From: Candidatus Brocadiia bacterium
Lineage (GTDB): Bacteria > Planctomycetota > Brocadiia > SM23-32
DNA: 47,600 nt
Assembly: GCA_046538485.1 (NCBI GenBank)
Contig: JBKHIT010000036.1
Location: forward strand, 1 to 47,600
Direction: 5' to 3'
The notes under the pieces are model-generated. The model was not told where the DNA came from and made no database searches. It worked only from the letters and a program-made list of their open reading frames with translations. Each line of letters begins with the position of its first letter. The stretch's first letter is position 1. Position numbers and translations under genes: made by a program. Positions 23,435-35,753 of this stretch are shown in pieces.

Positions 23435-23747
23435 TGCTTCTCCTGCTCCGCTCTTGTAATGCGCGCCAAGGCCTTCAATTGCTCAACAGGTTAGTCTTGC
23501 ACGTACAAACTGAAAAAGCGATTGCAACTTTGGCGACGTCATACTTTTTTACGACAACTCCTGTCACATGCTACTGCCAACAACCCCTACACGTAAAGAG
23601 TTCCGGTGGGCAGAGAACGTTATGGGTTTCCAGTGACAGCTGGGGACGGACATTCTCGTTGATTTAGGGACCGACTGATTGCCGGGGAGACCGAGTCATG
23701 GAAGAATGTTTACGTTTGGGCCGGTGACGTTGAACGGCCGGAGCGAT

Positions 23748-23769
23748 AAAAAAGGCGCATCCTGTCGCC
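23748..23769 (-). terminator. Putative terminator of retron operon
   Basis: Minus strand GGCG-a-CA-gga-TG-CGCC then T6, ~77 nt after RT stop; short stem. Confidence 0.45.
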
Positions 23770-23845
23770 GTAATTCGTTGTCAGCATACCATGAAACTTT
23801 GCCGGGTTTCTTTGATATCCCGTAGAAACTTAAATCAACGCGTTA

Positions 23846-24841
23846 TCAGTTAGTTGCCGCCGTCAAATCCTCGCAACTGAGAAACAGAGCATAGGCTTCT
23901 TCCATTTCCTGCTCGGTACCTCCCCAATCAATACCGTTGAGTCTGCCCCTGAGCTTTTTCCCTAAATCAGGATCGAACCGTTCGACGTGCTGGACACGGC
24001 CATTGATTTTCTGCTTTGCTTTTCCCACGGATAGTCCGTTAATAACTGCATATGCAGCAGCGCCGTTTTCCAGACAGAACCAGATGTCGTCCTTTAAATC
24101 CTGCAGGAATGATTTCGTTGGACGGAGCTTATTGTTGACGACAAGTCCAGTCACAACTTGTCTCTCCCACTCTGGAGTTGCCTTAACCTTCTCAGGTGCG
24201 ACGGTGTAGCCAGTCGATTCTATTCTGTCTACGAAGGCCTGGCACATTGAACGCAGATCGAGTTGCCCTGAGACCGCTATGTCATCGACGTATCGTCCGT
24301 AATTAAGGTTTTCTTGGCCAGAACGCTGACACAGATATAGGCATTCTTCATCTGCTGGCAAAAACGCCACATTAGCGAGCAGGGGGCTGGTTGGTGCACC
24401 TTGAGGCAAACAGCTTTCGTGGGTTGTAAGACGACCCACCAACGATGCTGCGTCCTGGGTGAATCCTCTGCGGCAAAGAGTGTTCTCGACCCGAGCTAAT
24501 GATGTAGAAGGAAAAAAGGACCTTATATCCAACGCCAAAAGCCACCTTTGCCCCACGTGAGGTTGCGCATATTCTTTGATCGAACGGCCTGGTATCCCTC
24601 CAAACATATATTTCGGTGCAGGCAAAAAAGCATCTTTGAGAATATCAAGAAGTTTGTATTGCGTTTCTTTGAGCCAGGGATAAGGGGGGTGAATAATTCT
24701 CAGCTTACCGCTATCTTTTTCAAGCTCCAATCTTCCGTAAGCGTTGGGCGCTTTGTCCGCTTGTTGTCGCAGGTGCAATAGAGATGCTTCGCATCGGCTG
24801 GCTATCTCAACCGCGTCAATTTTGCGTTTTTTGTTCCTCAT
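23846..24841 (-). CDS. Retron-type reverse transcriptase
   Basis: KDSGKLRIIHPP, LDIRSFFPS, LPQGAPTSP, catalytic YVDD, retron region Y QVVTGLVVN, region X variant YAQPH; ATG 24841 preferred (ORF extends to 24871). Confidence 0.93.
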   Translation of the reverse strand: MRNKKRKIDAVEIASRCEASLLHLRQQADKAPNAYGRLELEKDSGKLRIIHPPYPWLKETQYKLLDILKDAFLPAPKYMFGGIPGRSIKEYAQPHVGQRWLLALDIRSFFPSTSLARVENTLCRRGFTQDAASLVGRLTTHESCLPQGAPTSPLLANVAFLPADEECLYLCQRSGQENLNYGRYVDDIAVSGQLDLRSMCQAFVDRIESTGYTVAPEKVKATPEWERQVVTGLVVNNKLRPTKSFLQDLKDDIWFCLENGAAAYAVINGLSVGKAKQKINGRVQHVERFDPDLGKKLRGRLNGIDWGGTEQEMEEAYALFLSCEDLTAATN

Positions 24842-25130
24842 CTTGGCGTCCGTTTTCCCAAACTTTCTCAACGATCAGCTCTGCTGCCTGTATCAGAAGT
24901 TTTTGATCGTTAGGTAACTCTTCTGGCATATCCAGGGACTTCCAGAGAATTACCTCTGGCTCCGTTTCCAGTGCTTCGGATACGGAACGCAACCTGTTCA
25001 TACTAATATCTCTATCACCCGATTCAATCAGACTAATTGTCGCCTGACTGACACCAGCCGCGTCCGCAAGTTCCACTTGCGTTAGCCCGCGTTTTTTCCG
25101 CAATCTTCTTATCGTATCGCCTATATCCAT
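24816..25130 (-). CDS. XRE/Cro-C1 HTH protein, retron-associated
   Basis: IGDTIRRLRKKRGLTQVELADAAGVSQATISLIESG; overlaps RT start. Confidence 0.92.
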   Translation of the reverse strand: MDIGDTIRRLRKKRGLTQVELADAAGVSQATISLIESGDRDISMNRLRSVSEALETEPEVILWKSLDMPEELPNDQKLLIQAAELIVEKVWENGRQDEEQKTQN

Positions 25131-25185
25131 CTTCGCGTTGTTTTATGGGTTAGTTGCTGTTATTTGTTTTCGCCCAACTCGCCAA

Positions 25186-25422
25186 CTATGTCGCCGTTTT
25201 GATTAGTTCTAATGCGAACATGGCTGTCTTTAGGATGACGCTAACAGCTGCACCATCCAAGCGCAATTTGGAATGATCCCGCAATTCTCGGCGGAGATCT
25301 TTCTCCAAATTACGGAGACAGGCCCTCTGCTGGAGATTAAGATCGCTACTCTTGGCTGCGATGGTGATCGCAGCAAGAACAAGATTAGCGTCTTCATCCG
25401 TTAATACTATTTTGCCACTCAT
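25186..25422 (-). CDS. Small helical protein (78 aa), candidate type VI retron effector (SP)
   Basis: Strong SD GAAAGGAGGT 6 nt before ATG; sits between ncRNA and HTH; hydrophobic N- and C-terminal helices. Confidence 0.8.
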   Translation of the reverse strand: MSGKIVLTDEDANLVLAAITIAAKSSDLNLQQRACLRNLEKDLRRELRDHSKLRLDGAAVSVILKTAMFALELIKTAT

Positions 25423-25733
25423 ATGTAAACCTCCTTTCTATCTTGAAATCCCAACTGAGTTAAACATCCCAGTTTCGCTTGAGCGAATTGCTGGGGAAAG
25501 TCTTACCCATCTGCGAAACGATTTTGGCAAATACGACATCGCTCGCAGTGACCGTAAGGGGCACTTTGCTTCAATGGCGAGGCGTAACCAAGTTCCTCGG
25601 GACACAAGGCTACATCGTCAATTGTGCACCCCTGGCCGCAGTGGAGAAGGAAGCCCCGCTCCACGTCGCGAAAGGAGGTATCTGTTTGAGCGGCGGACGA
25701 ATGTCAAAGATCCGAACCACTTGGTTCGTATTA
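25414..25733 (-). ncRNA. Retron msr-msd ncRNA (overlapping SP translation start)
   Basis: Terminal IR 25670-25694/25414-25438; G directly 3' of the 5' arm (25669); internal hairpins 25641-25664, 25578-25599, 25502-25558, 25468-25495; promoter upstream; ends approximate. Confidence 0.8.
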
Positions 25734-25739
25734 CTCTCA

Positions 25740-25768
25740 ATAATAATATATGGGTGACTCTTTGTCAA
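25740..25768 (-). promoter_or_regulatory. Sigma70 promoter of retron operon
   Basis: TTGACA (25768-25763)-17 bp-TATTAT (25745-25740). Confidence 0.75.
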
Positions 25769-25902
25769 GAGAAAAGTAATATTTATTTATACGCCCATAT
25801 GTCCCGGAAGGGTGTCACATACAGTAGGGTTTAAGGGTAGCAGATTATTACTGACCGGACCAAGATGACAACGAAAAGCTGAGAATCCTTCTGAGAAAAA
25901 GC

Positions 25903-25930
25903 TTGACATAGTAGTTTTTAATGGTAAAAT
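25903..25930 (+). promoter_or_regulatory. Sigma70 promoter of R-M operon
   Basis: TTGACA-16 bp-TAAAAT with TGn extended -10. Confidence 0.7.
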
Positions 25931-25985: not shown

Positions 25986-27809
25986 ATGAGTCTGATCGAT
26001 GATGATGCCTGCCGGGATATCCTGATGGCGCTGATGAAGTATCCGCCCTCCCGTGAGTTCAGCCGGCGGAAAGTGGCCGAAATTGCCGATGTGCCGCAAT
26101 CCACCGCGAACCGTAAACTCGAAACGCTCGCCAAACAGGGCGTTATCGATGTGCGGCCGATCGAAGGGGGGAACACCCACCTGGTGTCCATCAACGAAGA
26201 CAGCCCCCACTACGGCGAGCTGAAATCCGCCTTCGAAAAACAACGCGATAAAGAACTGGAAGACGAAAAACAGAAAGGCACCGACTCCGGGCAGACCATC
26301 ACCCTCCACGTGCTCGAATCCTACCTGTGGCAGGCCGCCGACATTCTGCGTGGCAGCATCGACTCATCCGACTATAAAAGCTACATTTTCGGGCTGCTTT
26401 TCCTCAAACGCCTGAGCGATCGGTACGAGGAGGAGGCCGAAGAGTTGATCGAGGAGGGCATTCCGGAGAAGATTGCCTTCGATGATGAGGACCTGCACAC
26501 GTTCTATCTCCCGCCGCGTGCGCGATGGGAACACGTCCAGAAACAGAACCGCGATATCGGCGCCACCATCAATAAGGCCTTCGAGGAGGTGGAGAACCGT
26601 AACGATACCATCGAGAACGGCGTCCTGACCAGCATCGATTTCAACGATAAGGAACGTCTTCCCGATCCGGTGCTGGAGGAGCTGATCGTTCATTTCAGCC
26701 AGAAAAGTTTCCGGAACGAGAATCTGGCCGATCCCGATATCTTTGGCCGGGCCTACGAATATCTCATCCGTCAGTTCGCCGACGACGCCGGGAAGAAGGG
26801 CGGGGAGTTCTACACGCCTCGGGGCGTGGTGCAGGCTCTGGTGAAGATCCTCGACCCGCAGCCGGGCATGCGCGTCTATGATCCGTGCTGCGGCTCGGGC
26901 GGGATGCTCATCTACTCGGCATCCCACATTCGCGAGGACAACGGCGGAAGCATGGAGGACATCTCACTCTACGGTCAGGAGCGGAACCTCAACACCTGGG
27001 CCATCGCCGAGATGAACATACTGCTTCACAACCTCCCGGATGCCCGTATCGCCAAGGGCGACACCATGCGGGAGCCGAAGTTCCTGGACAACGCCGGTGG
27101 CCTGATGGTCTTCGACCGGGTCATTGCCAATCCGATGTGGAATCAGAAGCGGTGGAGCAAGGAGTTTATCAAGGAGAACCAGCCGTTCAACCGTTTCCCC
27201 TACGGTCTGCCCCCCAAAAACTCCGCCGACTGGGCCTGGGTGCAGCACATGCTGGCCAGTCTCAACCAGACCGGCAAGATGGGCGTGGTGCTGGACAACG
27301 GCGTGCTGTTCCGGAGCCGTTCGGAGGGCAAGATACGTCGCAAGGCGCTGGAGGACGATCTGGTGGAGGCAGTGATCGCCCTGCCGGGCAACCTCTTCTA
27401 CAACACCTCCTCCCCGGGCTGCATCATGATCCTGAACAAGGACAAGCCGGAGGAGCGACGGGGCAGAGTCCTGTTCATCTACGCCGAGGATCAGGAGGCA
27501 CGCGAATCCGGCACGCTGCTCTACGAGGAGCTGTCGAACCAGAACCGTCTGCTGGACAGCGGCATCGAGAAAATCGTCGAGACCTATCAGGAACTGGCGG
27601 AGGAAGACCACTTCAGTCGGCTGGTCGGGCTGGAGGAGATCGAGGAGAACGACTGGAATCTGAATGTCCCGCGTTACGTCGATACAACCGAGCCGGAGGA
27701 GCCCATCGATGTAAGCGAGAAGCGCCAGGAACTGCAGGAACTGGAAGGGAAGCGAGATCAGATCAATACTGAGCTGAATACATTTCTTGAGGAGCTTGGG
27801 TACGAATGA
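25986..27809 (+). CDS. hsdM: Type I R-M methyltransferase HsdM with N-terminal winged HTH extension
   Basis: LWQAADILRG, GEFYTP, YDPCCGSGGML, motif IV NPMW, WNLNVPRY; first ~95 aa wHTH-like (FSRRKVAEIADVPQSTANRKLETLAKQGVI). Confidence 0.95.
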   Translation: MSLIDDDACRDILMALMKYPPSREFSRRKVAEIADVPQSTANRKLETLAKQGVIDVRPIEGGNTHLVSINEDSPHYGELKSAFEKQRDKELEDEKQKGTDSGQTITLHVLESYLWQAADILRGSIDSSDYKSYIFGLLFLKRLSDRYEEEAEELIEEGIPEKIAFDDEDLHTFYLPPRARWEHVQKQNRDIGATINKAFEEVENRNDTIENGVLTSIDFNDKERLPDPVLEELIVHFSQKSFRNENLADPDIFGRAYEYLIRQFADDAGKKGGEFYTPRGVVQALVKILDPQPGMRVYDPCCGSGGMLIYSASHIREDNGGSMEDISLYGQERNLNTWAIAEMNILLHNLPDARIAKGDTMREPKFLDNAGGLMVFDRVIANPMWNQKRWSKEFIKENQPFNRFPYGLPPKNSADWAWVQHMLASLNQTGKMGVVLDNGVLFRSRSEGKIRRKALEDDLVEAVIALPGNLFYNTSSPGCIMILNKDKPEERRGRVLFIYAEDQEARESGTLLYEELSNQNRLLDSGIEKIVETYQELAEEDHFSRLVGLEEIEENDWNLNVPRYVDTTEPEEPIDVSEKRQELQELEGKRDQINTELNTFLEELGYE

Positions 27810-29134
27810 GTGATGATGGTTACAAAGAAGTGCACGTAGGACCGCAGAGACTGCAAATTCCCATCGAATGGGAAGTAAAGCTTATCAAAGATTGTTGCCG
27901 TTACGTTTCTGGGTCAGGATTTCCAGAAGAATATCAAGGCAAAAAAAGGGGGGATTATCCATTTTATAAAGTGAGTGATATGAACAATTACACCAAGTTC
28001 ATGGGTGATTCTAACAATTACGTTGGAGAGGTGGAGGTTGAAAAATTAAATCTCAAAACGGCACCTAAGGACGCCGTAATTTTTCCCAAACTTGGAGCGG
28101 CTTTGGAAACTAACAAGAGACGCATACTCTCAAGAGAGTCAATTTTTGATAATAATATTGCTGCCCTTATCGCGACAGACATAAATAATAGGTTCCTGTA
28201 TTATGTCCTGCAGACAATAGATTTGGGCATATTGGGGAATTCCGGAACAGTTCCGTCAATCAACAAATCCACGATTGAAAAATTGCAATTACTCTGCCCA
28301 CCATTGCCCGAACAGAAGAAAATCGCCGCCATCCTTTCCCGTGTGGACGAGGCGATCCGGACCACCGAGGAGATCATCGACAGGACGGAGGAGCTGAAAA
28401 AAGGCCTGATGCAGGACTTGCTCACCCGCGGGATCGGACATGATGAGTTCAAGGAAGTGCAGATTGGGCCGAAGAGGTTGTCGGCACCTGCGTGCTGGGA
28501 GAAAGTAAAGGCGGGAGATCTATGTAAAGTTAAAGGCGGTAAAAGACTGCCAAAAGGTGAGGGATATGCTGAAGAGAAAACGGAATTCCCGTATTTGCGT
28601 GTAGTAGATTTCAGTAATGGTTCTATCGATCCTTCCGAACTGCAGTATCTCAAACCGGACACTCAGCAGAAAATAGCTAGGTATACCATAACTTGTAAGG
28701 ACGTGTTCATATCGATTGCGGGCACGATAGGGGTAGTCGGAATTGTTCCTGATTTCCTGGATAACGCCAACCTAACGGAGAATGCCGCCAAGTTGTACGA
28801 TCTTCAAGTAGACCAGAAGTATCTGTATTATTATCTCAGCGGCAAACTGGGACAGGATGAAATAGACCGGTTCACGATCGGTAGTACCCAGCCTAAGCTG
28901 GCTCTCAAAAGAATAAAGAAGATTAATGTGCTAGTCCCGCCCAAAAAAGAACAGAAACAAATCGCATCCATCCTGTCCCGAGTGGATGAAAAGCTCCAGA
29001 CCGAACGGGAATATCGGGAGGAGCTCACCGAACTGAAGAGGGGCCTGATGCAGGACCTGCTGACCGGCAAGGTGCGCGTGACGGATTTGCCGGATGACTT
29101 ATTTGAAGGGATGGATTGTGCCGAATTGGCCTGA
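27806..29134 (+). CDS. hsdS: Type I R-M specificity subunit
   Basis: Two TRDs; PPLPEQKKIAAIL..LKKGLMQDLL repeated as PPKKEQKQIASIL..LKRGLMQDLLTG; ATGA overlap with hsdM. Confidence 0.95.
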   Translation: MSDDGYKEVHVGPQRLQIPIEWEVKLIKDCCRYVSGSGFPEEYQGKKRGDYPFYKVSDMNNYTKFMGDSNNYVGEVEVEKLNLKTAPKDAVIFPKLGAALETNKRRILSRESIFDNNIAALIATDINNRFLYYVLQTIDLGILGNSGTVPSINKSTIEKLQLLCPPLPEQKKIAAILSRVDEAIRTTEEIIDRTEELKKGLMQDLLTRGIGHDEFKEVQIGPKRLSAPACWEKVKAGDLCKVKGGKRLPKGEGYAEEKTEFPYLRVVDFSNGSIDPSELQYLKPDTQQKIARYTITCKDVFISIAGTIGVVGIVPDFLDNANLTENAAKLYDLQVDQKYLYYYLSGKLGQDEIDRFTIGSTQPKLALKRIKKINVLVPPKKEQKQIASILSRVDEKLQTEREYREELTELKRGLMQDLLTGKVRVTDLPDDLFEGMDCAELA

Positions 29135-29303: not shown

Positions 29304-32300
29304 ATGGCATTATCTGATGCAGCAAAGGAGCACGCTGAAGAGTTAGGACGGCAATTAGCCAAGGATAAACTATGCATCATTGCTGGTGCCGGTGTATCCC
29401 GGAACCCGCCCGCAGAGCTGCCCAACTGGCTTAATTTAGTCAAAAGAGTGAATGAGAATCTTGATGCGGGATTAGAAGAAGATACCCTCGCCAAACCGAT
29501 GATGGCCATGGGGATCATGGAAGTCCGCAAGGATCGTGGGAGCGTGGTCTCTGCTATGAGGGAAGTGCTCCCCGACAACACTCCGACCACTCATATTCAC
29601 CGGCGCCTTGTATCGCTTGGTTGCCCGATCTATACAACAAATGTCGACCAACTCTTTGAGAAGGCTGCGGAAGATCAGGATATCCCGATACGAGTCCTCA
29701 AATGCGACCAGGATTTTGCGCATGATGTGCAAGGACAAATCATCTGTAAGCTTCATGGGGATCTGCAGGCTCCGGATACACTTGTCCTGTCGCAAGGTGA
29801 CTACCATGAGGTCATGAAGCAAGAGAAAGCACGGGGATTATTCACTAAATTTCGTGCCCAATTGCAGGATTCGTATGTGCTTATGGTGGGGCATAGTGCC
29901 AATGATCCCGATTTGCAATGGACAGTAGATTACGTCAAGGAACTGCTTGGTAGAGAGGCGCGTCCAATCCGTGTCATCACAGCCACGCCTCGCCAGGATG
30001 ATATAACACGCCTTAAGGGTGTTCTTGGCCTGACCCCTGTGGTGCTTGATAATTACGATCAGCTGCCGGAATTACTCAGGACTTTGGAAGACTCGGCTCG
30101 GGAGCAAGGGAGCGCTTCTTCCCCACCAGAGTCTATTACCCTCCTAGAGGAGAATACCGTTGACATTGTGGAAGATATTTGGGCTGAGAAATCAGAGGAG
30201 ATAAACGAACTGCTCCGTCGTTGTGACTATGAACAGGCTTTAAGCCGTGCTGAAACCTGGGAGCAGCGAATCATGGACATTGATGGGGTCTCCTCCAATA
30301 CGGTTGCCAGAATATATCGCATTAAAGCAATTTGCCACCGCCAACAAGGCGACGAGGACGCAGCGCTTGTGGAAATTAATGCAGCCCTGGAAGAAGCCCC
30401 CGACAATCCCCAGAACCAGGTGGAACTTGCAACCATCAGGCTTATGTCAGGTGGACAGGAAGAAGCTTCCCACGCCCTAAAAAATGAGCAAGATTTGGAT
30501 ACTCGGCGATTCCAAGCCATGCTGGGGCTTATGTCGGATGATCTGGAGCCTACAGCAGAGCTGTTAGAGGACCCCGAAGCTCAAGAAGACGCGAACTGCC
30601 AAAGCCTCTTCGCGACTTATTATTACCGTACGGCCCGTTTTCCTGAAGCGGTTCAGGCGGCGCGTAAAGTGGCAGAGTTTGGAGATACAGTGCACGCCCA
30701 CGAACGTGCGGGAGATATAATTTATACCGTTGCAGTAAGGGGTGTGCAGGAAATGATAAACGAGAATCTACTCCTGAAACCTGATCAGTTTGAAGTGCCG
30801 ATGGGAGGAGTAGTGGACTGTCAACTGCTCGAAGAGGCTACTGAATTCTACAAGACAGCCCGTGATATGGCAGCGGAATCAGCGCGATGGGTTCGAACTG
30901 TCTTATCCAAAAAGATAGCTAGATCGGCTTGGATGGTTGGCGACAGGGAATCAGCCGACCAGAGTATTTCGCGGATACCTGAACTTGATGATTTGGAGGG
31001 CTTTTTCGAAAGAGGGAGTAGCCTTACAGAAACAGATGTCGAGGAACTGGTCGAGCAACTGAAAGAAGGGCCGCATCGCCGACGGGAGGATCCGGTATCA
31101 GCATTGATCAACGTAGCCGAGCAACTGCTGGAGCACAATAAGTCAACACTGGCGCTGCGGCTGCTGGATAAGGCTAAACAGATGGTTCCTGACGGAATTA
31201 TGCTCTTTTGGCGGAATCTGCGAGCTCGAGCATTGCTGCAGGATAGAGGTCTCCGGTCAGCAATGCGAGAGTTGAATCGGGCTAGATCCACACCCCAAGG
31301 CGAAGCTGCTGTCCACCAGTTCAAAGCGCAGTTGCAGGCACAAGCTGGAAAGCCAGAATCAGCAAAAAAATGGTTCGCACGTGCACTGAAGTCCGGGAGA
31401 TTCCGCGTATCAGCGCTCTACAGGTATGGGATGTTCGCATTGTCAGAACTGCAAGATTACGAAAAGGCAGCTGACCTTTTAGGGGAACTCATCCAATTGG
31501 TTCCAAGCCAGAAAATACAGGAGGTCTACTGCGAAGCCGCAATTGCTACAAACAAAGGGGACCTTATTCGACGGGCCAGAGCGGAATTGGAGGGATTGCG
31601 GGCCAAAGGGCAAGCGGACAAACAGGCTCTACGAGGGCTGATTGCATGTTACCAGAAAGAAACAGATTGGAAGAGAGCCCGAGAAATCGCCGAAGAGTAT
31701 CTGAAACGGTGGCCAGAAGATAAACCCATTCGGAACAACTACGCACTGTTCCTTGACAGATGCGGCGAAATAGATCTGGCATTAATGCAACTGGAAAAGC
31801 TTCGGACTTTATCTGATTTGGAGCCTGATGAGCGGTTCGGGATGCTTGTCAATAGAGCACAAATCCTTCTGAATGCGGAACGCTACCGAAAGGGTTACCG
31901 CACGGCTCTTGAGGCAAAGCAAGACTTCGAAAGCCGGGCCGAGGGTTGGCTGATGCTTATGCGCGCTTGCCGTATGCTGGGGAGGGATGACGAGCTGGCT
32001 TCAGTCATGGTAAATTTCCACAGTCGTTTCCCTGACCATCCAGCAGTCTGTGCTGAAACGGATGTGAAAAAGCTCGTTCATCTGCAGGAGACTCTTAGCA
32101 AACGAAGTCAAAAATGCAGGGAGAAATACGAGTCCCGGGAAATTCCTATACACCTGTTGGCAGAATGTTGGGGAATGCCATTGCCGGTTATCTGGGCCTA
32201 TTTAGCAAAGAACGAGGCCGTGCTTTGTGGCCTCCATGATGAGGAGACTATAGAGGCTCAAATGCAACGGATTGACGGGGGGACGCTGATTCTTGATTAC

Positions 32301-35300
32301 ACTGCCTTGCTTGCCATCAGAGAGTTGGATCTATGGGATCACCTATCCAAACTTCCAAATGTGATTGTGTCTCAAGCCCTCCTTGATCAGCTGCAAGAGG
32401 ATTCGCATGATCTCCAGGGGCGTCTGCGGATAGAACACCGGGAACGTTACGAGCATATGCAAGAAACACTTGAAGGGAGTGGCAGCGTCTCCATTCATGA
32501 CCAGAATCCCCGTCAGGATATACCCGATCCATGGATTGAGGAGCATGGCTGGATCACGGCGGCTGACCTATGGCACGCAGAACAGGCAGAAGGAGTGGTG
32601 CTTGATGACATATCTGATACGCTCCCGCCCAGCAGGATTCTCAGAACAGACCAGTTGCTCCAGTGTTTACACAGGGAAGGCTGGTTGTCCCGTTCTGATT
32701 TGGACGACGCAATAGAAGAAATCAATCAGTGGCCCAGCCATATACAAGGGGGTACGGAAGCTCCACTCGTTGTGAAGGACACCCAGATGACGACTCCCAT
32801 CGTGCTGTCAATAAACGCGATCGAATCACTTGAGAGGTTGGACATGCTGGAGCTGGTCGCATCCCGCTGCAGTCAAGCTATTGTTTCCTCAGCAACCTGG
32901 AGTCATTTTGCGTCTGAACTTGCGCAACTGCGCTTTTTCAAACGTACAAAAGAAAACCAAGACCATCTTCGCAATCGGGCCACAAGCATAGACGTCACGG
33001 CGGTAGAAAAGCGCGAAGTGCAGGCCGCTGGCCTGAAAGCCGATGCAGATTCGGCATACCTACAACACAACTGGTGTCTTGCGAGAAAAGATCAGAGTCT
33101 CCTTTGGACGGACGACGCAGTGCTCCGGGCATATACCGAAAAGAGGCCGGTTGTAGAAGACGGCATGGCCGTGACTACTATAGCCGTGTTGCATTGGTTA
33201 AAAGAGAATGGCCATCTGGATGAAGAGGATTTTCGAAGGCGAATTCAAACTCTGACTAGACTCCAATATCAGTACGTCGTTCCGGAGGCAGATGACTTGC
33301 TTTGGACAATGCGGGAGTACAATTGGCAAATTACTGAAGAAGCTGCGGAAACCTTACGTTACTATGGAGGACTTTTTGAACACGTCAAGCCCAATGTGAG
33401 GAATCTGAATTGTTTTTTCCAATCTATCGAGGAACTGTTGTGCGAATGTTGGCAGTTATCTGGACGTTCACAGACAGAAAAGGCGGACCTCGCAAACTGG
33501 ATATTAGAGAATATCATGCATCCACGATGGTACGAAGAGAGGCCGGAAAAGGTTAGGCGCGTCTTCCTCGACCGCATGCTTCTTGTGTTATGGAGGATGC
33601 CTGTCGCGGGAGCTCGACGTTTTGGAATATGGTTGCGGGATTACTTTATGCAAGAGGGAATGCCAGCAAAGGAATTTGCTGAAGCATTAGGGGATTTGCT
33701 GAGGGAGATATCGCAGACAGAAACAGAAAAAGAGGAAAAAGAAAAAGCAATAGTCAACATCCTCGTTCGCTTGCCTGTGTGTCTTAGACGAATGATTCCT
33801 GAAAAAATCTTTTTCAGAATATCGCATTTATTGGAACAGAGTGAAGGTACACTTCAAGTGCTTGAAGCTAAAACTGCTCAGGGCACGTTCTCTTTGGCTC
33901 AAAACGATGTGAAGATGCTCGCAGAGGATCAGGTTGAGCGTCATGGAGCTGAAGCTATAAATGAGAATCTAAGAGTTGAAATATCAGCCGACGTCACCCG
34001 GTATGCATTCTGTGAAGAAGAGGACGGTGTCTTGCGATGGCCCTCATATCCTTCCGGCCTGCGACAGGAGTTTTACGTCGATGCGACTGAACTATTGACC
34101 AGTTGGTCGCAAGGTGTTCGAAAGAGCACGGCTGCAGGTATCGCCAGTCGAATTAATGATTCTTCTGTAAGTTTTGTTGCGCTAAATAGCAGTCTGCATA
34201 ACACGAACGAGTGGAATGATGAACAAATTCGCGATCTCCGGACAATTGCTCATTCCCCAGCAGTCCGTCTTCTATTCCACGGTGGGGAGTCCAACGAACA
34301 GTGGATCAGGGAGCTTCTCGGAACATCATGGGAAACCATACAAAATGCCTATGGATACCTACCGAACGCGCCTCAAGATGTTTTCCTTAGCGGAAATGAC
34401 TGGCCTGAATGTATTCGTTCTGCATTTCCGACTCGTGGCGCTTTTGCGAACACAATACGGGAAGTGAGTCATGCTGGCGGCGACAGTTGTTTGGACGATC
34501 TACTTGGACAGCTAACCCACACGCACGATCCTTTTACATTTGCAGCGAGTCTGGAGGCGATCTTCGAACGGGTAGATGTGGGATCAGGCGTGGAACCCGA
34601 TCAGAAAGACACCATTTCCAATCAAATCCATCACGGACTGACTGTATTTGGGGATTCGGGCGACCGGCATGCCAGGCACACTGCATTCGTAGAGATACTG
34701 CGCGCTGTGGCGTGGATTTCGATCCAAAAAGGTTACATCTATCGAAGCAATAACTCGCAACGGCTCACAAACGCGGAACTACTGGTGCCGGTTATACCGT
34801 TGGCCCGGGATATTGCTGAGATCGTCGATCTTTCGTCTGCAACTCAAAAAGAATGCCAGGGCATCAAGAAGTCCTTTGTCAGGATTGTGGATATCGCGGC
34901 TCAGAACAGCATGCGTAACGGTGTTGTTGCAGTAACCAACGATGTTGCAGATTTCCGTTGTATAACTCCCAGAGAGTTGCTCCCGGCGATAACCATGAGC
35001 GTCTTGGAGCAATCCCCAAAGACCAGCAAGAAATTTGTGGATTACCATCAAATCAAAGAAGAGGTCGTTACCCTATTGTTACCCCCTGTCTCTGTGCTAT
35101 CGCTCCCGCGACGGACTCAGAATAGGCTCGACATGTATCCATCAGCATCCCTACCGGAATGCGCTCAGAGACTTCTGACCGAATTCTTGCGCAAAAGCAA
35201 GCTAAAAGAAGCAATCGGGGATTGGGAACGACCTACTTGGCGAAAAATTCCACCTACCGTTCGCGTTATGGAAGCGGACGTTCAAGACGTCACATTTGGG

Positions 35301-35753
35301 CTGCTCCAGCATAAGGTCCCTTTCATACCGGCAAGCATAGCCAATCAGCTATATACCGATGCAAAGGATCCACAAGAACTGTGGCACCGTGCTGAGAATG
35401 AGATGCCAAATGCTCTCTCATTTTTCTGGTCTTGTGTAACGCTGTTGGATGAAGACAACCGCCGTGAGCTGTGTGAAGGTACCTGTGCAGCTGCTGAAAT
35501 GTCGCTGGATGCCCAAAACTTGGAACGGGCCATTTGGGGCATAAATCTGATAATCAGACATCTTCAAGACTTGAGCGAGGCCGAGTGGAGCACTTTATCA
35601 TTGCTTCTCTTTCGTACCCTCGAAGATGAGGCTGTTGATGAAGACATCCGACGAAGCATTGCGCGATCTATGAGCAACCTACCGGAGAATATTGGACGGC
35701 TTAACCGAGAAATCGCAGCAGATTTTGCCTCGGATATTTTTCCTGGGTTATAA
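29304..35753 (+). CDS. SIR2-like NADase domain + TPR repeats + PIN-like domain(s), 2149 aa
   Basis: IIAGAGVS..LPNW, TTNVD, KLHGD, VGHSANDPD; TPR-like helices aa ~300-900; LILDYTALL and LLWTDD PIN-like motifs. Confidence 0.85.
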   Translation: MALSDAAKEHAEELGRQLAKDKLCIIAGAGVSRNPPAELPNWLNLVKRVNENLDAGLEEDTLAKPMMAMGIMEVRKDRGSVVSAMREVLPDNTPTTHIHRRLVSLGCPIYTTNVDQLFEKAAEDQDIPIRVLKCDQDFAHDVQGQIICKLHGDLQAPDTLVLSQGDYHEVMKQEKARGLFTKFRAQLQDSYVLMVGHSANDPDLQWTVDYVKELLGREARPIRVITATPRQDDITRLKGVLGLTPVVLDNYDQLPELLRTLEDSAREQGSASSPPESITLLEENTVDIVEDIWAEKSEEINELLRRCDYEQALSRAETWEQRIMDIDGVSSNTVARIYRIKAICHRQQGDEDAALVEINAALEEAPDNPQNQVELATIRLMSGGQEEASHALKNEQDLDTRRFQAMLGLMSDDLEPTAELLEDPEAQEDANCQSLFATYYYRTARFPEAVQAARKVAEFGDTVHAHERAGDIIYTVAVRGVQEMINENLLLKPDQFEVPMGGVVDCQLLEEATEFYKTARDMAAESARWVRTVLSKKIARSAWMVGDRESADQSISRIPELDDLEGFFERGSSLTETDVEELVEQLKEGPHRRREDPVSALINVAEQLLEHNKSTLALRLLDKAKQMVPDGIMLFWRNLRARALLQDRGLRSAMRELNRARSTPQGEAAVHQFKAQLQAQAGKPESAKKWFARALKSGRFRVSALYRYGMFALSELQDYEKAADLLGELIQLVPSQKIQEVYCEAAIATNKGDLIRRARAELEGLRAKGQADKQALRGLIACYQKETDWKRAREIAEEYLKRWPEDKPIRNNYALFLDRCGEIDLALMQLEKLRTLSDLEPDERFGMLVNRAQILLNAERYRKGYRTALEAKQDFESRAEGWLMLMRACRMLGRDDELASVMVNFHSRFPDHPAVCAETDVKKLVHLQETLSKRSQKCREKYESREIPIHLLAECWGMPLPVIWAYLAKNEAVLCGLHDEETIEAQMQRIDGGTLILDYTALLAIRELDLWDHLSKLPNVIVSQALLDQLQEDSHDLQGRLRIEHRERYEHMQETLEGSGSVSIHDQNPRQDIPDPWIEEHGWITAADLWHAEQAEGVVLDDISDTLPPSRILRTDQLLQCLHREGWLSRSDLDDAIEEINQWPSHIQGGTEAPLVVKDTQMTTPIVLSINAIESLERLDMLELVASRCSQAIVSSATWSHFASELAQLRFFKRTKENQDHLRNRATSIDVTAVEKREVQAAGLKADADSAYLQHNWCLARKDQSLLWTDDAVLRAYTEKRPVVEDGMAVTTIAVLHWLKENGHLDEEDFRRRIQTLTRLQYQYVVPEADDLLWTMREYNWQITEEAAETLRYYGGLFEHVKPNVRNLNCFFQSIEELLCECWQLSGRSQTEKADLANWILENIMHPRWYEERPEKVRRVFLDRMLLVLWRMPVAGARRFGIWLRDYFMQEGMPAKEFAEALGDLLREISQTETEKEEKEKAIVNILVRLPVCLRRMIPEKIFFRISHLLEQSEGTLQVLEAKTAQGTFSLAQNDVKMLAEDQVERHGAEAINENLRVEISADVTRYAFCEEEDGVLRWPSYPSGLRQEFYVDATELLTSWSQGVRKSTAAGIASRINDSSVSFVALNSSLHNTNEWNDEQIRDLRTIAHSPAVRLLFHGGESNEQWIRELLGTSWETIQNAYGYLPNAPQDVFLSGNDWPECIRSAFPTRGAFANTIREVSHAGGDSCLDDLLGQLTHTHDPFTFAASLEAIFERVDVGSGVEPDQKDTISNQIHHGLTVFGDSGDRHARHTAFVEILRAVAWISIQKGYIYRSNNSQRLTNAELLVPVIPLARDIAEIVDLSSATQKECQGIKKSFVRIVDIAAQNSMRNGVVAVTNDVADFRCITPRELLPAITMSVLEQSPKTSKKFVDYHQIKEEVVTLLLPPVSVLSLPRRTQNRLDMYPSASLPECAQRLLTEFLRKSKLKEAIGDWERPTWRKIPPTVRVMEADVQDVTFGLLQHKVPFIPASIANQLYTDAKDPQELWHRAENEMPNALSFFWSCVTLLDEDNRRELCEGTCAAAEMSLDAQNLERAIWGINLIIRHLQDLSEAEWSTLSLLLFRTLEDEAVDEDIRRSIARSMSNLPENIGRLNREIAADFASDIFPGL

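Follow-up and report, generated by a model that had tools for sequence, protein, structure and literature searches.

The window analysed here, a stretch of 47,600 nucleotides (nt) from contig JBKHIT010000036.1 of a Candidatus Brocadiia bacterium, contains an operon with the layout of a type VI retron. The operon (25768-23846) lies on the minus strand throughout and consists of a promoter, a structured leader, and genes for a small protein (SP), a helix-turn-helix (HTH) protein and a reverse transcriptase (RT). The original prediction, made from the letters of the DNA, had proposed a complete retron at this place, closed by a terminator, and had suggested that the SP might represent a new effector family. 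The features of the operon, in the order of transcription, are the following, where SD stands for Shine-Dalgarno sequence and aa for amino acids:

25768-25740, minus strand: sigma-70-type promoter, TTGACA (25768-25763), 17 nt spacer, TATTAT (25745-25740), 11 of 12 matches to the consensus
25755-25767, minus strand: dyad TGAC-N5-GTCA over the -35 hexamer, found by eye and without a statistic
25713-25728, minus strand: 5' stem-loop, CGAACC, loop AAGU, GGUUCG, with covariation in alignment A2
25694-25710, minus strand: conserved box UCUUUGACA (25710-25702) with the bases flanking it on the 3' side, pairing over a long range, as 5' strand, with SP codons 8-11
25670-25694, minus strand: 5' inverted-repeat arm with the anti-SD CCUCCUUUC (25678-25670), from repeat search and covariance model
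25439-25669, minus strand: structured leader core, candidate msr-msd (template for reverse transcription), from folds
25414-25438, minus strand: 3' inverted-repeat arm with the SD GAAAGGAGG (25438-25430), the AUG (25422-25420) and the next two SP codons
25186-25422, minus strand: SP, 78 aa, small helical protein and presumed toxic effector, from open reading frame (ORF), SD, profile and AlphaFold2 model
24816-25130, minus strand: XRE/Cro-C1 HTH protein, 104 aa, N-terminal HTH and C-terminal helical extension, Pfam HTH_3 2.9e-16
23846-24871, minus strand: retron RT, 341 aa from TTG 24871 or 331 aa from ATG 24841, Pfam RVT_1 5.2e-17
23769-23748, minus strand: weak terminator-like element, GGCGACAGGAUGCGCC then UUUUUU, a 4-5 bp GC stem with U6, read from the sequence

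The RT, whose 331-aa form is the one in the protein database, bears the marks of a retron enzyme. In the available text of PMC7736814, these marks are a region X motif NAXXH, with the histidine as its most conserved residue, a YXDD motif, and the VTG of region Y. The RT of the window has YAQPH at residues 101-105 (the alanine and the histidine are kept, and the asparagine is replaced by tyrosine), YVDD at 194-197 and VTG at 240-242. Among the 22 closest RTs, A92, H95, D186-D187, T231 and G232 are invariant, and the tyrosine of YVDD and the valine of VTG are conserved to at least 90%. In a comparison with PADLOC, 63 families match the protein, and the best 25 of the 63 are all retron RT models. 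The original prediction would have been undermined by clustering with non-retron classes, but no such clustering was seen. By its motifs and profile matches, the protein can thus be taken as a retron RT.

The HTH protein points to type VI. Its top PADLOC family is HTH_VI, with 62.2 bits (E 1e-17) over residues 3-88 of the protein and 2-86 of the 92 profile positions, and all other PADLOC families stay at or below 36 bits. It is 23-37% identical to 20 HTH proteins of the same clade. As the original prediction had noticed, its gene overlaps the gene for the YVDD/VTG enzyme; the overlap amounts to 26 nt with ATG 24841 as the RT start, and to 56 nt with TTG 24871. According to the accessible part of Mestre 2020 (PMC7736814), type VI retrons encode an HTH protein of the Cro/C1 type (cluster 2_1, 91-110 aa), either just upstream of the RT or overlapping it. 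The HTH protein of the window has this size and position, and its membership of cluster 2_1 would follow from its match to the PADLOC model named for the type.

The gene order points in the same direction. The nearest RTs are 43-47% identical, and 419 proteins were found at E <= 1e-10 among 4416 candidates. Scans yielded 80 loci in genomes (295 of 327 candidate stretches confirmed) and 80 loci in metagenomes (461 of 595). The named closest loci come from Pirellulales, Planctomycetaceae, Phycisphaerales, Brocadiales, Planctomycetota, and from one Nitrospirae metagenome-assembled genome. The order SP-HTH-RT, with an ORF of 76-98 aa and an HTH protein of 94-109 aa in front of the RT, is found in eight of the genome loci and in 12 further distinct metagenome loci. 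The order small ORF-HTH-RT was also seen in all 12 gammaproteobacterial reference loci, which a search with the RT_VI model at E <= 1e-60 had turned up in 12 of 400 genomes.

The SP has no match among the Pfam and PADLOC families, and single-sequence searches (word-indexed search and phmmer against 1.84 billion representatives) return only the query. A profile built from eight syntenic SPs ranks it first among the 948 ORFs of the window (E 0.011). When the search is widened to the 15,841 ORFs of all loci and the window, 24 SP ORFs reach E < 1e-5 with this profile. Every one of them lies upstream of an RT and on its strand, and the SP of the window is next in rank (E 0.18). With a profile of 22 distinct syntenic SPs, the match improves to E 7e-4, with the next ORF at 0.49, and it is collinear, profile positions 7-78 aligning with residues 7-76. 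In alignment A3, the SP is only 12-24% identical to the others, and is the shortest and most divergent of its family, but it has retained both residues of an L-x(4)-R motif, L28, which is invariant, and R33, which is nearly so.

The lack of ready sequence similarity was one reason to suspect a new effector family. It is what should be expected, and not the sign of a new family, because the SPs of Sen3 and Vpa2, the two type VI members studied so far, are only 1.9% identical despite their common fold, in the published type VI work as far as it was available. The accessible text of PMC7736814 describes the auxiliary proteins of type VI as small (75-79 aa) and three-helical. In Mestre 2020 and Garcia-Rodriguez 2026, such proteins fall into clusters 2075, 2760, 3272 or 3897, or are unclustered in the 'Large' lineage. 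The SP of the window resembles them in its size, in its position 5' of the HTH gene, and in the number of modelled helices. The AlphaFold2 model made with alignment A3 (pLDDT 81.2, pTM 0.60) consists of a strand, a helix (9-23), a second helix (30-49), a strand, and a third helix (57-77). A Foldseek search with this model against the PDB gave no matches at E <= 0.001, and the top feature scores in a protein atlas (0.80-0.81) were at chance level by the calibration of the tool. The SP is a distant member of an SP family that stands beside the closest RTs, and its predicted fold and its predicted contact with the HTH protein are as published for Sen3, which speaks against a new effector family.

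The contact was predicted with confidence. The model of the SP-HTH complex has an ipSAE of 0.61, compared with 0.01 for the best of three controls. A value of 0.61 is reached by 116 of 157 solved complexes and by two of 215 mismatched pairs, which is a rough guide only, since the alignments were our own. At least 95% of the contacts recur between runs, and the pLDDT of the partner is at least 79. In the predicted interface, residues 55-93 of the HTH protein, that is, its C-terminal extension (tightest at 78-87), contact residues 1-27 and 55-75 of the SP. The arrangement resembles the AlphaFold3 model of Sen3 in the available part of 10.64898/2026.04.27.721009, where HTH helix 6 (76-91) packs against SP helix 3 (53-79) and helix 1 (1-23). 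The prediction supports binding of the SP by the HTH protein.

The leader is structured, as the original prediction had stated. Nucleotides 25735-25423 fold with -109.4 kcal/mol (z = -2.85), and none of 100 shuffles fold as well. For the transcript from the start site to the start of the HTH gene (612 nt), z is -6.74, and none of 20 shuffles reach it. The terminal inverted repeat (25694-25670 against 25438-25414) is 25 nt long and 76% complementary, with a duplex energy of -34.3 kcal/mol. Its duplex buries the SD core GGAGG (25434-25430) and the AUG (25422-25420) of the SP gene, whose strong SD GAAAGGAGG ends 7 nt 5' of the ATG. The conserved GCGACG (25669-25664, minus strand) follows directly 3' of the anti-SD arm. 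A second helix, in which 25702-25694 pair with 25401-25392 in the SP coding sequence, has an energy of -10.9 kcal/mol, equalled by 7.6% of random windows. The box of the window departs from the consensus in having CAUUC for CAAC, and this change is compensated in the SP codons, where an A-U pair becomes a U-A pair. Since the box-codon helix stacks on the stem of anti-SD and SD, the SD, the start codon and about ten codons would lie in one long basal stem. An Rfam search of 3.5 kb around the locus with E up to 10 gave only chance snoRNA-like matches, all on the plus strand near the neighbouring hsdM gene.

The relatives share the plan of this leader. A promoter is followed by a hairpin of 5-6 bp with a CAAG-like loop, by an invariant box, and after 25-35 nt by the anti-SD; 3' of the anti-SD CCUCCUUUC come CGNCG, a hairpin, a variable core, and finally the SD and AUG of the SP gene. 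The hairpin directly after CGNCG is present in most relatives, as judged without a formal covariation test. The invariant box reads UCUUUGNCA, also written UCUUUG(A/G)CAAC, and lies 864-1041 nt 5' of the RT ORF in 22 related loci; a loose 9-mer version of it has 90 matches in 1.7 Mb, counting both strands. In alignment A2 of 21 loci, 94.3% of the cells of the 5' hairpin pair, compared with 49.2% in shuffles and 33-49% in slid controls. Two-sided changes occur in 48 cells, against 18.7 in shuffles, a number that none of 500 shuffles reach. A covariance model of this region, R1, built from 16 relatives with the window excluded, finds one match in the 47.6 kb, at 25734-25660 on the minus strand (41.6 bits, E 5.7e-9), and the next match has E 0.94.

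The pairing of the 5' end with the start of the SP gene is conserved as well. A mononucleotide-shuffle test of the anti-SD duplex was uninformative for most loci, and cognate pairs were therefore compared with non-cognate ones. In 20 loci, the 5' arm pairs with its own SD region with a mean of -23.9 kcal/mol, compared with -21.9 kcal/mol for non-cognate pairs (permutation p = 0.006). A free search places the partner of the box and its 3' flank within the SP coding sequence, about 33-46 nt past the start, in 11 of 20 loci. When the partner is anchored by the protein alignment, 80.8% of the cells of this helix pair, against 72.8 +/- 1.1% after permutation (reached in none of 2000 permutations) and 24-65% in slid controls. 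Compensatory changes are found in the variable flank of the box, for example in L003, which has CAAUCG in the box and CGAUUG in the partner.

Some of these features extend to the gammaproteobacterial type VI loci. A hairpin and a UCUUU(G/A)A box were seen by eye in seven of them. The helix between box and SP codons is present in five of six, with -12.2 to -14.7 kcal/mol, values that no more than 3% of random windows from the respective locus attain. In L164, L165, L166, L169 and L170, the box 3' of the stem-loop pairs over 12-14 bp with SP codons 3-10, and these loci covary. A short model, R2, finds the expected sites with marginal E values (L169 0.04, L025 0.36, L170 0.89, L168 1.8, L166 2.8). 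It seems that in type VI retron RNAs generally, the first codons of the toxin form one arm of the outermost helix.

In view of this RNA structure, one may ask whether the 78-codon frame is translated at all, or whether the region acts only as RNA, as a part of the retron non-coding RNA (ncRNA). The coding region does lie within conserved RNA helices, and the sequence of the SP has no match beyond the reach of profiles. The HTH genes of L001-L010 and L081-L098 have pyrimidine-rich leaders and no SD, in contrast to the strong SD of the SP gene upstream. That only the SP gene has a strong SD fits a role of the SD as an RNA structure element as much as a role as a ribosome site. However, the strong SD and the open frame are conserved in more than 20 loci (among the 21 SPs of the clade listed with candidate starts, 20 have a strong SD), and third-codon changes are about twice as frequent as first- or second-position changes in three close SP pairs. 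Because of this third-position excess, and of the strong SD that the neighbouring HTH genes lack, the SP family looks translated. The confident fold and the predicted complex with the neighbouring protein argue for a protein, too, and the SPs of Vpa2 (10.1101/2025.10.22.683967) and Sen3 (10.64898/2026.04.27.721009) are toxic proteins according to the available portions of the two reports. A role as RNA only is therefore highly improbable.

At the 5' end, the promoter claimed in the original prediction stands, and transcription probably starts near 25735-25732. A scan of 2.6 kb gave six promoter-like sites, compared with 2.7 expected from shuffles; the relatives have a promoter-like pair at the equivalent site, just 5' of the conserved hairpin. 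The dyad over the -35 hexamer has counterparts elsewhere, all noted by eye. Among the gammaproteobacterial type VI loci, L164 and L165 have TTGACTcacAGTCA(A/C), and L169 has the related TGACTG-c-CAGTCA; in the clade loci L010 and L092, the dyad reads TTGCACT-N3-AGTGCAA. As far as the eye can judge, these similarities suggest that the HTH protein regulates its own operon, and the dyad may be a candidate HTH operator that is kept across phyla. At the 3' end, the terminator of the original prediction stands only in part. The short stem and the run of U6 are there, but a terminator scan made no call at 23769-23748, and the fold of the region is no more stable than that of shuffled sequences (z = 0.03).

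Taken together, gene order, HTH family and leader RNA indicate that the intact operon is very probably a type VI-style retron defence system. Type VI has already been characterised in two preprints (10.1101/2025.10.22.683967 and 10.64898/2026.04.27.721009). The system of the window is most probably a divergent new member of the known type VI retrons, to which Vpa2 and Sen3 belong, and neither a new kind of system nor a new class of effector.

A number of observations weigh against this assignment. The best RT model is RT_III-A with 193 bits, and RT_VI follows with 161 bits, whereas bona fide gammaproteobacterial type VI RTs score 224-298 bits on RT_VI. The phylogenetic tree places the clade of the window and the type VI references at a single unresolved node, and it was calculated without type IV and V outgroups. 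Model R1 found nothing at the expected places in 19 further loci, proteobacterial type VI loci among them. The outer helix of the window is shorter and weaker than in the relatives. As to the SP, its tie to the family rests on 19.7 bits, it is without the basic N-terminal tail and the approximately 15 C-terminal residues of its relatives, and an hhalign comparison with seven gammaproteobacterial SPs gave a probability of only 16% (P = 0.0016, 62 columns), which is collinear but weak.

The profile scores of the RT require some comment. In a PADLOC scan of 55 RTs, true type III-A enzymes (L014, L016, L043) scored 398-456 bits on RT_III-A, and true II-A, X, XI, XII and Ec107-like RTs scored 350-633 bits on their own models. 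The relatives of the RT of the window reach only 189-247 bits on their best model. This is RT_III-A for most of the clade members scanned, and RT_VI for L089, L090, L092 and L094, as well as for the more distant L025 and L101. The RT of the window scores 72 bits on RT_IV and 63 bits on RT_V. Since true III-A RTs score about twice as high on the same model, the III-A label is, on these scores, an artefact of best-hit ranking, and the RT is not closely matched by any PADLOC model. Low profile scores are typical of type VI, because 91 of the 195 reference RTs below the 160-bit cut-off of the SPIRE survey belong to this type, according to the accessible text of PMC13712802. Best-hit typing of RTs is unreliable around types V, VI and III-A. 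In L169 (G089:C2) and L170 (G158:C119), two loci with a clear SP-HTH-RT order, the RTs score higher on RT_V (264 and 274 bits) than on RT_VI (234 and 230 bits).

The tree was calculated from 65 RT domains with IQ-TREE in 'quick' mode, with Shimodaira-Hasegawa-like approximate likelihood ratio (SH-aLRT) support only. Besides the RT of the window, it includes 30 near relatives, 12 references for type VI from Gammaproteobacteria, and 22 RTs that their PADLOC scores assign to other types. The RT of the window falls into a mostly planctomycete clade of 28 rows (SH-aLRT 98), beside L003 (87). A branch with support 98 sets apart, as one group, the 22 RTs of types II-A, III-A, Ec107-like, X, XI, XII and XIII/other. 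At the unresolved node, the clade of the window and L034 meet the type VI references, which fall into two groups; L025 and L101 are placed in one of these. Outgroups of types IV and V are absent because the searches gave no usable references. For type IV, none of 300 gammaproteobacterial genomes had a match at E <= 1e-70, and for type V only two of 300 matched, both with SP-HTH-RT loci that had already been fetched as type VI. In the available text of Mestre 2020 (PMC7736814), the type VI RTs form RT clade 3, which is monophyletic and has types IV and V as sisters. The tree thus rejects III-A and fits type VI, short of proving nesting. The clade may lie inside type VI or beside it, as it joins the references at the unresolved node.

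These data leave some room for a separate retron lineage, sister to type VI or outside of it and maybe nearer to III-A, which has gained or kept the module of HTH and small protein. The ranking of RT_III-A above RT_VI, shared by most scanned clade members, the lack of nesting among the type VI references, and the failure of R1 in proteobacterial type VI loci would agree with such an origin. Type III-A retrons have a phosphoribosyltransferase-like effector beside the RT, which agrees with the abstract of bioRxiv 10.1101/2024.02.09.579579. No phosphoribosyltransferase gene was found in the operon (ORF list, Pfam and PADLOC scans), which has only SP and HTH genes with the RT. The RT is similar in length to that of type III-A (PDLC02946), and this type gives it its top profile score. 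However, the HTH protein belongs to the type VI family over its full length, and the true III-A enzymes, apart from their far higher scores, are separated from the window in the tree by the well-supported branch that also holds six other types. Moreover, the element of hairpin and box and the box-codon helix are common to the gammaproteobacterial type VI loci, and low scores are typical of type VI. We therefore consider a separate lineage of this kind unlikely.

The divergence of the SP could also mean that the locus is a decaying or inactive copy, with an SP that is left over in truncated form and drifts, and with the defence function lost. The loss of the N-terminal basic tail and of the C-terminal residues, the weaker outer helix, and the altered box would all be in line with decay. 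However, none of the three ORFs is interrupted, the RT has its catalytic and retron motifs in full, and the promoter is close to consensus. The stem of SD and anti-SD is the second strongest of 20 loci (-34.3 kcal/mol, compared with -35.2 kcal/mol in L009). The compensation of the box change in the SP codons and the confident prediction of the SP-HTH interface are also difficult to reconcile with drift. Decay is thus improbable, even more so than a separate lineage, and a functional type VI-style retron remains the preferred interpretation.

If the operon is such a retron, it may work as follows. The near-consensus promoter would drive a long 'hybrid' RNA, with the structured template for the RT at the 5' side, and the coding sequences for the SP, then the HTH protein and the RT, at the 3' side. 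As the sequence, the folds and the covariation in relatives show, the 5' end of this RNA (hairpin, box and anti-SD arm) pairs onto the SD, the start codon and the first ten or so codons of the SP gene. This RNA lock would hold the translation of the SP inside a basal stem similar to a1/a2. By analogy with the studied members, the SP would be the toxic effector. The C-terminal helix of the HTH protein is predicted to bind SP helices 1 and 3, and could neutralise any SP that has escaped from the lock; the HTH protein probably also acts with the RT on the RNA, and on the -35 dyad. RT, HTH protein and RNA would form the sensor, as in Vpa2 and Sen3. Phage proteins that block RecBCD or bind single-stranded DNA may be the trigger, either because DNA made by the RT builds up, or because the complex of RT, HTH protein and RNA is upset. 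The SP would then be translated or released, and the infected cell stopped, again by analogy with Vpa2 and Sen3.

The release step can be imagined in more than one way. The very stable lock favours translation that depends on the multicopy single-stranded DNA (msDNA) product of the retron, as in Vpa2, and we lean towards such a step, though its chance may be slightly less than even. The confident SP-HTH interface fits post-translational control, as in Sen3, which appears somewhat less probable. A smaller chance goes to some other form of release.

Both relatives are known to us from the accessible parts of the two preprints, and the window resembles each of them in some respects. Like the window, the Sen3/cl2075 group (10.64898/2026.04.27.721009) has the order SP-HTH-RT with the HTH gene overlapping the RT gene. 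The SP of Sen3 has 79 aa, compared with 78 aa in the window, and is likewise helical with a hydrophobic C-terminal helix; the structured ncRNA lies within about 280-300 nt of the SP start, and the predicted contact of the HTH C-terminal helix with SP helices 1 and 3 is also shared. As in the window, the cl2075 RNAs have a stem-loop just 5' of the 5' repeat, a ribosome-binding site (RBS) inside the basal stem, and an SP coding region under structural selection of the RNA. In contrast, the hosts of the Sen3 group are Beta- and Gammaproteobacteria, whereas that of the window belongs to the Planctomycetota, and the RT of the window lies in a separate clade. The SPs cannot be aligned by ordinary means (the hhalign probability given above refers to look-alike gammaproteobacterial SPs, not to cl2075). 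The pairing of the Sen3 box with the RBS of the HTH gene is not conserved in the clade of the window. A pairing of the box with the HTH start, present in the minimum-free-energy fold of the window, was considered and discarded, since the mean cognate energy is -5.5 kcal/mol, against -9.2 kcal/mol for random segments, and the pairing is not conserved.

With Vpa2/Eco12 of the 'Large' lineage (10.1101/2025.10.22.683967), the window shares the hybrid RNA that combines the RT template with a translationally masked SP gene, the position of SD and AUG within stems, the annealing of a 5' region further downstream in the same transcript, and the components RT, HTH protein and RNA. The SP of Vpa2 is shorter (55 aa, compared with 78 aa in the window). 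The direct repeats that link msd and riboregulator in Vpa2 are not supported in the window or in other loci. The best candidate between msd and SP start in the window, with 10 of 12 matches (25529-25518 against 25417-25406), was rejected because 13 of 100 shuffles do equally well, and the other 19 loci show no excess of such repeats.

It is also conceivable, if rather doubtful, that the planctomycete-centred clade stands beside type VI as a retron lineage in its own right, which has a separate family of SP toxins, and that the conserved lock is the general switch of all SP-HTH-RT retrons. In that case, the lock would consist of the 5' box paired with toxin codons, stacked on the stem of anti-SD and SD. 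The first codons of the toxin would be the a2 arm that primes reverse transcription, so that the start of cDNA synthesis would itself open the RBS of the toxin gene. The -35 dyad that is common across phyla would be the operator of the HTH protein, and would link transcription to this sensor, too.

The host is an uncultured planctomycete. As the top non-self match of the isoleucyl-tRNA synthetase encoded in the window is only 75% identical, the host appears to be without a close sequenced relative, and the poorly sampled lineage of the original prediction is borne out; the named matches, from Planctomycetota and Candidatus Brocadiia, are 67-71% identical. The genome assembly (5.19 Mb in 143 contigs, 88% complete) contains a single retron RT according to scans with the PADLOC RT models. 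Two weak RT-like matches in the same genome (G000:C99:9029-9412 and G000:C120:7635-8159), with 28-29 bits on RT_VIII, are probably non-retron RTs. The DNA from 23700 to 25900 is present as a whole in the probable source run, without variants and without joints in any of the assembled contigs compared. Identical DNA was also seen in short low-depth contigs of three further public runs from two studies; one of these runs comes from the second study and is labelled as a salt lake metagenome. No RNA run was listed among the public runs that contain the locus.

The neighbours of the retron operon are hsdM on one side and a phospholipase-C-like gene. Three genes near the retron, all on the plus strand, have defence-related annotations:

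25986-27809, plus strand: hsdM, type I restriction-modification methylase (HsdM_N and N6_Mtase), divergent from the retron
27806-29134, plus strand: hsdS, specificity subunit, from domain scan
29304-35753, plus strand: SIR2-TPR protein, 2149 aa, N-terminal SIR2_2 followed by TPR repeats, from domain scan

The retron, the type I restriction-modification genes and the SIR2-TPR gene form a small defence island, with housekeeping genes on the other flank. A further near-consensus promoter (25903-25930, plus strand; TTGACA, 16 nt, TAAAAT, with an extended -10 TG) faces hsdM, and is 135 nt away from the -35 element of the retron.

The value of the locus is comparative. The two type VI members studied so far, Vpa2 and Sen3, seem to use different control logic. 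The locus and its at least 20 relatives extend type VI into Planctomycetota, Nitrospirota and related uncultured lineages. Classification by the best PADLOC hit of the RT would assign the enzyme of the window to III-A, and may miss or mislabel the system. The RNA features that survive over this distance are the 5' hairpin, the UCUUUGNCA box, the anti-SD arm, and the pairing of the 5' end with the codons of the toxin. They are the natural targets for understanding how type VI retrons may couple reverse transcription to the release of the toxin.

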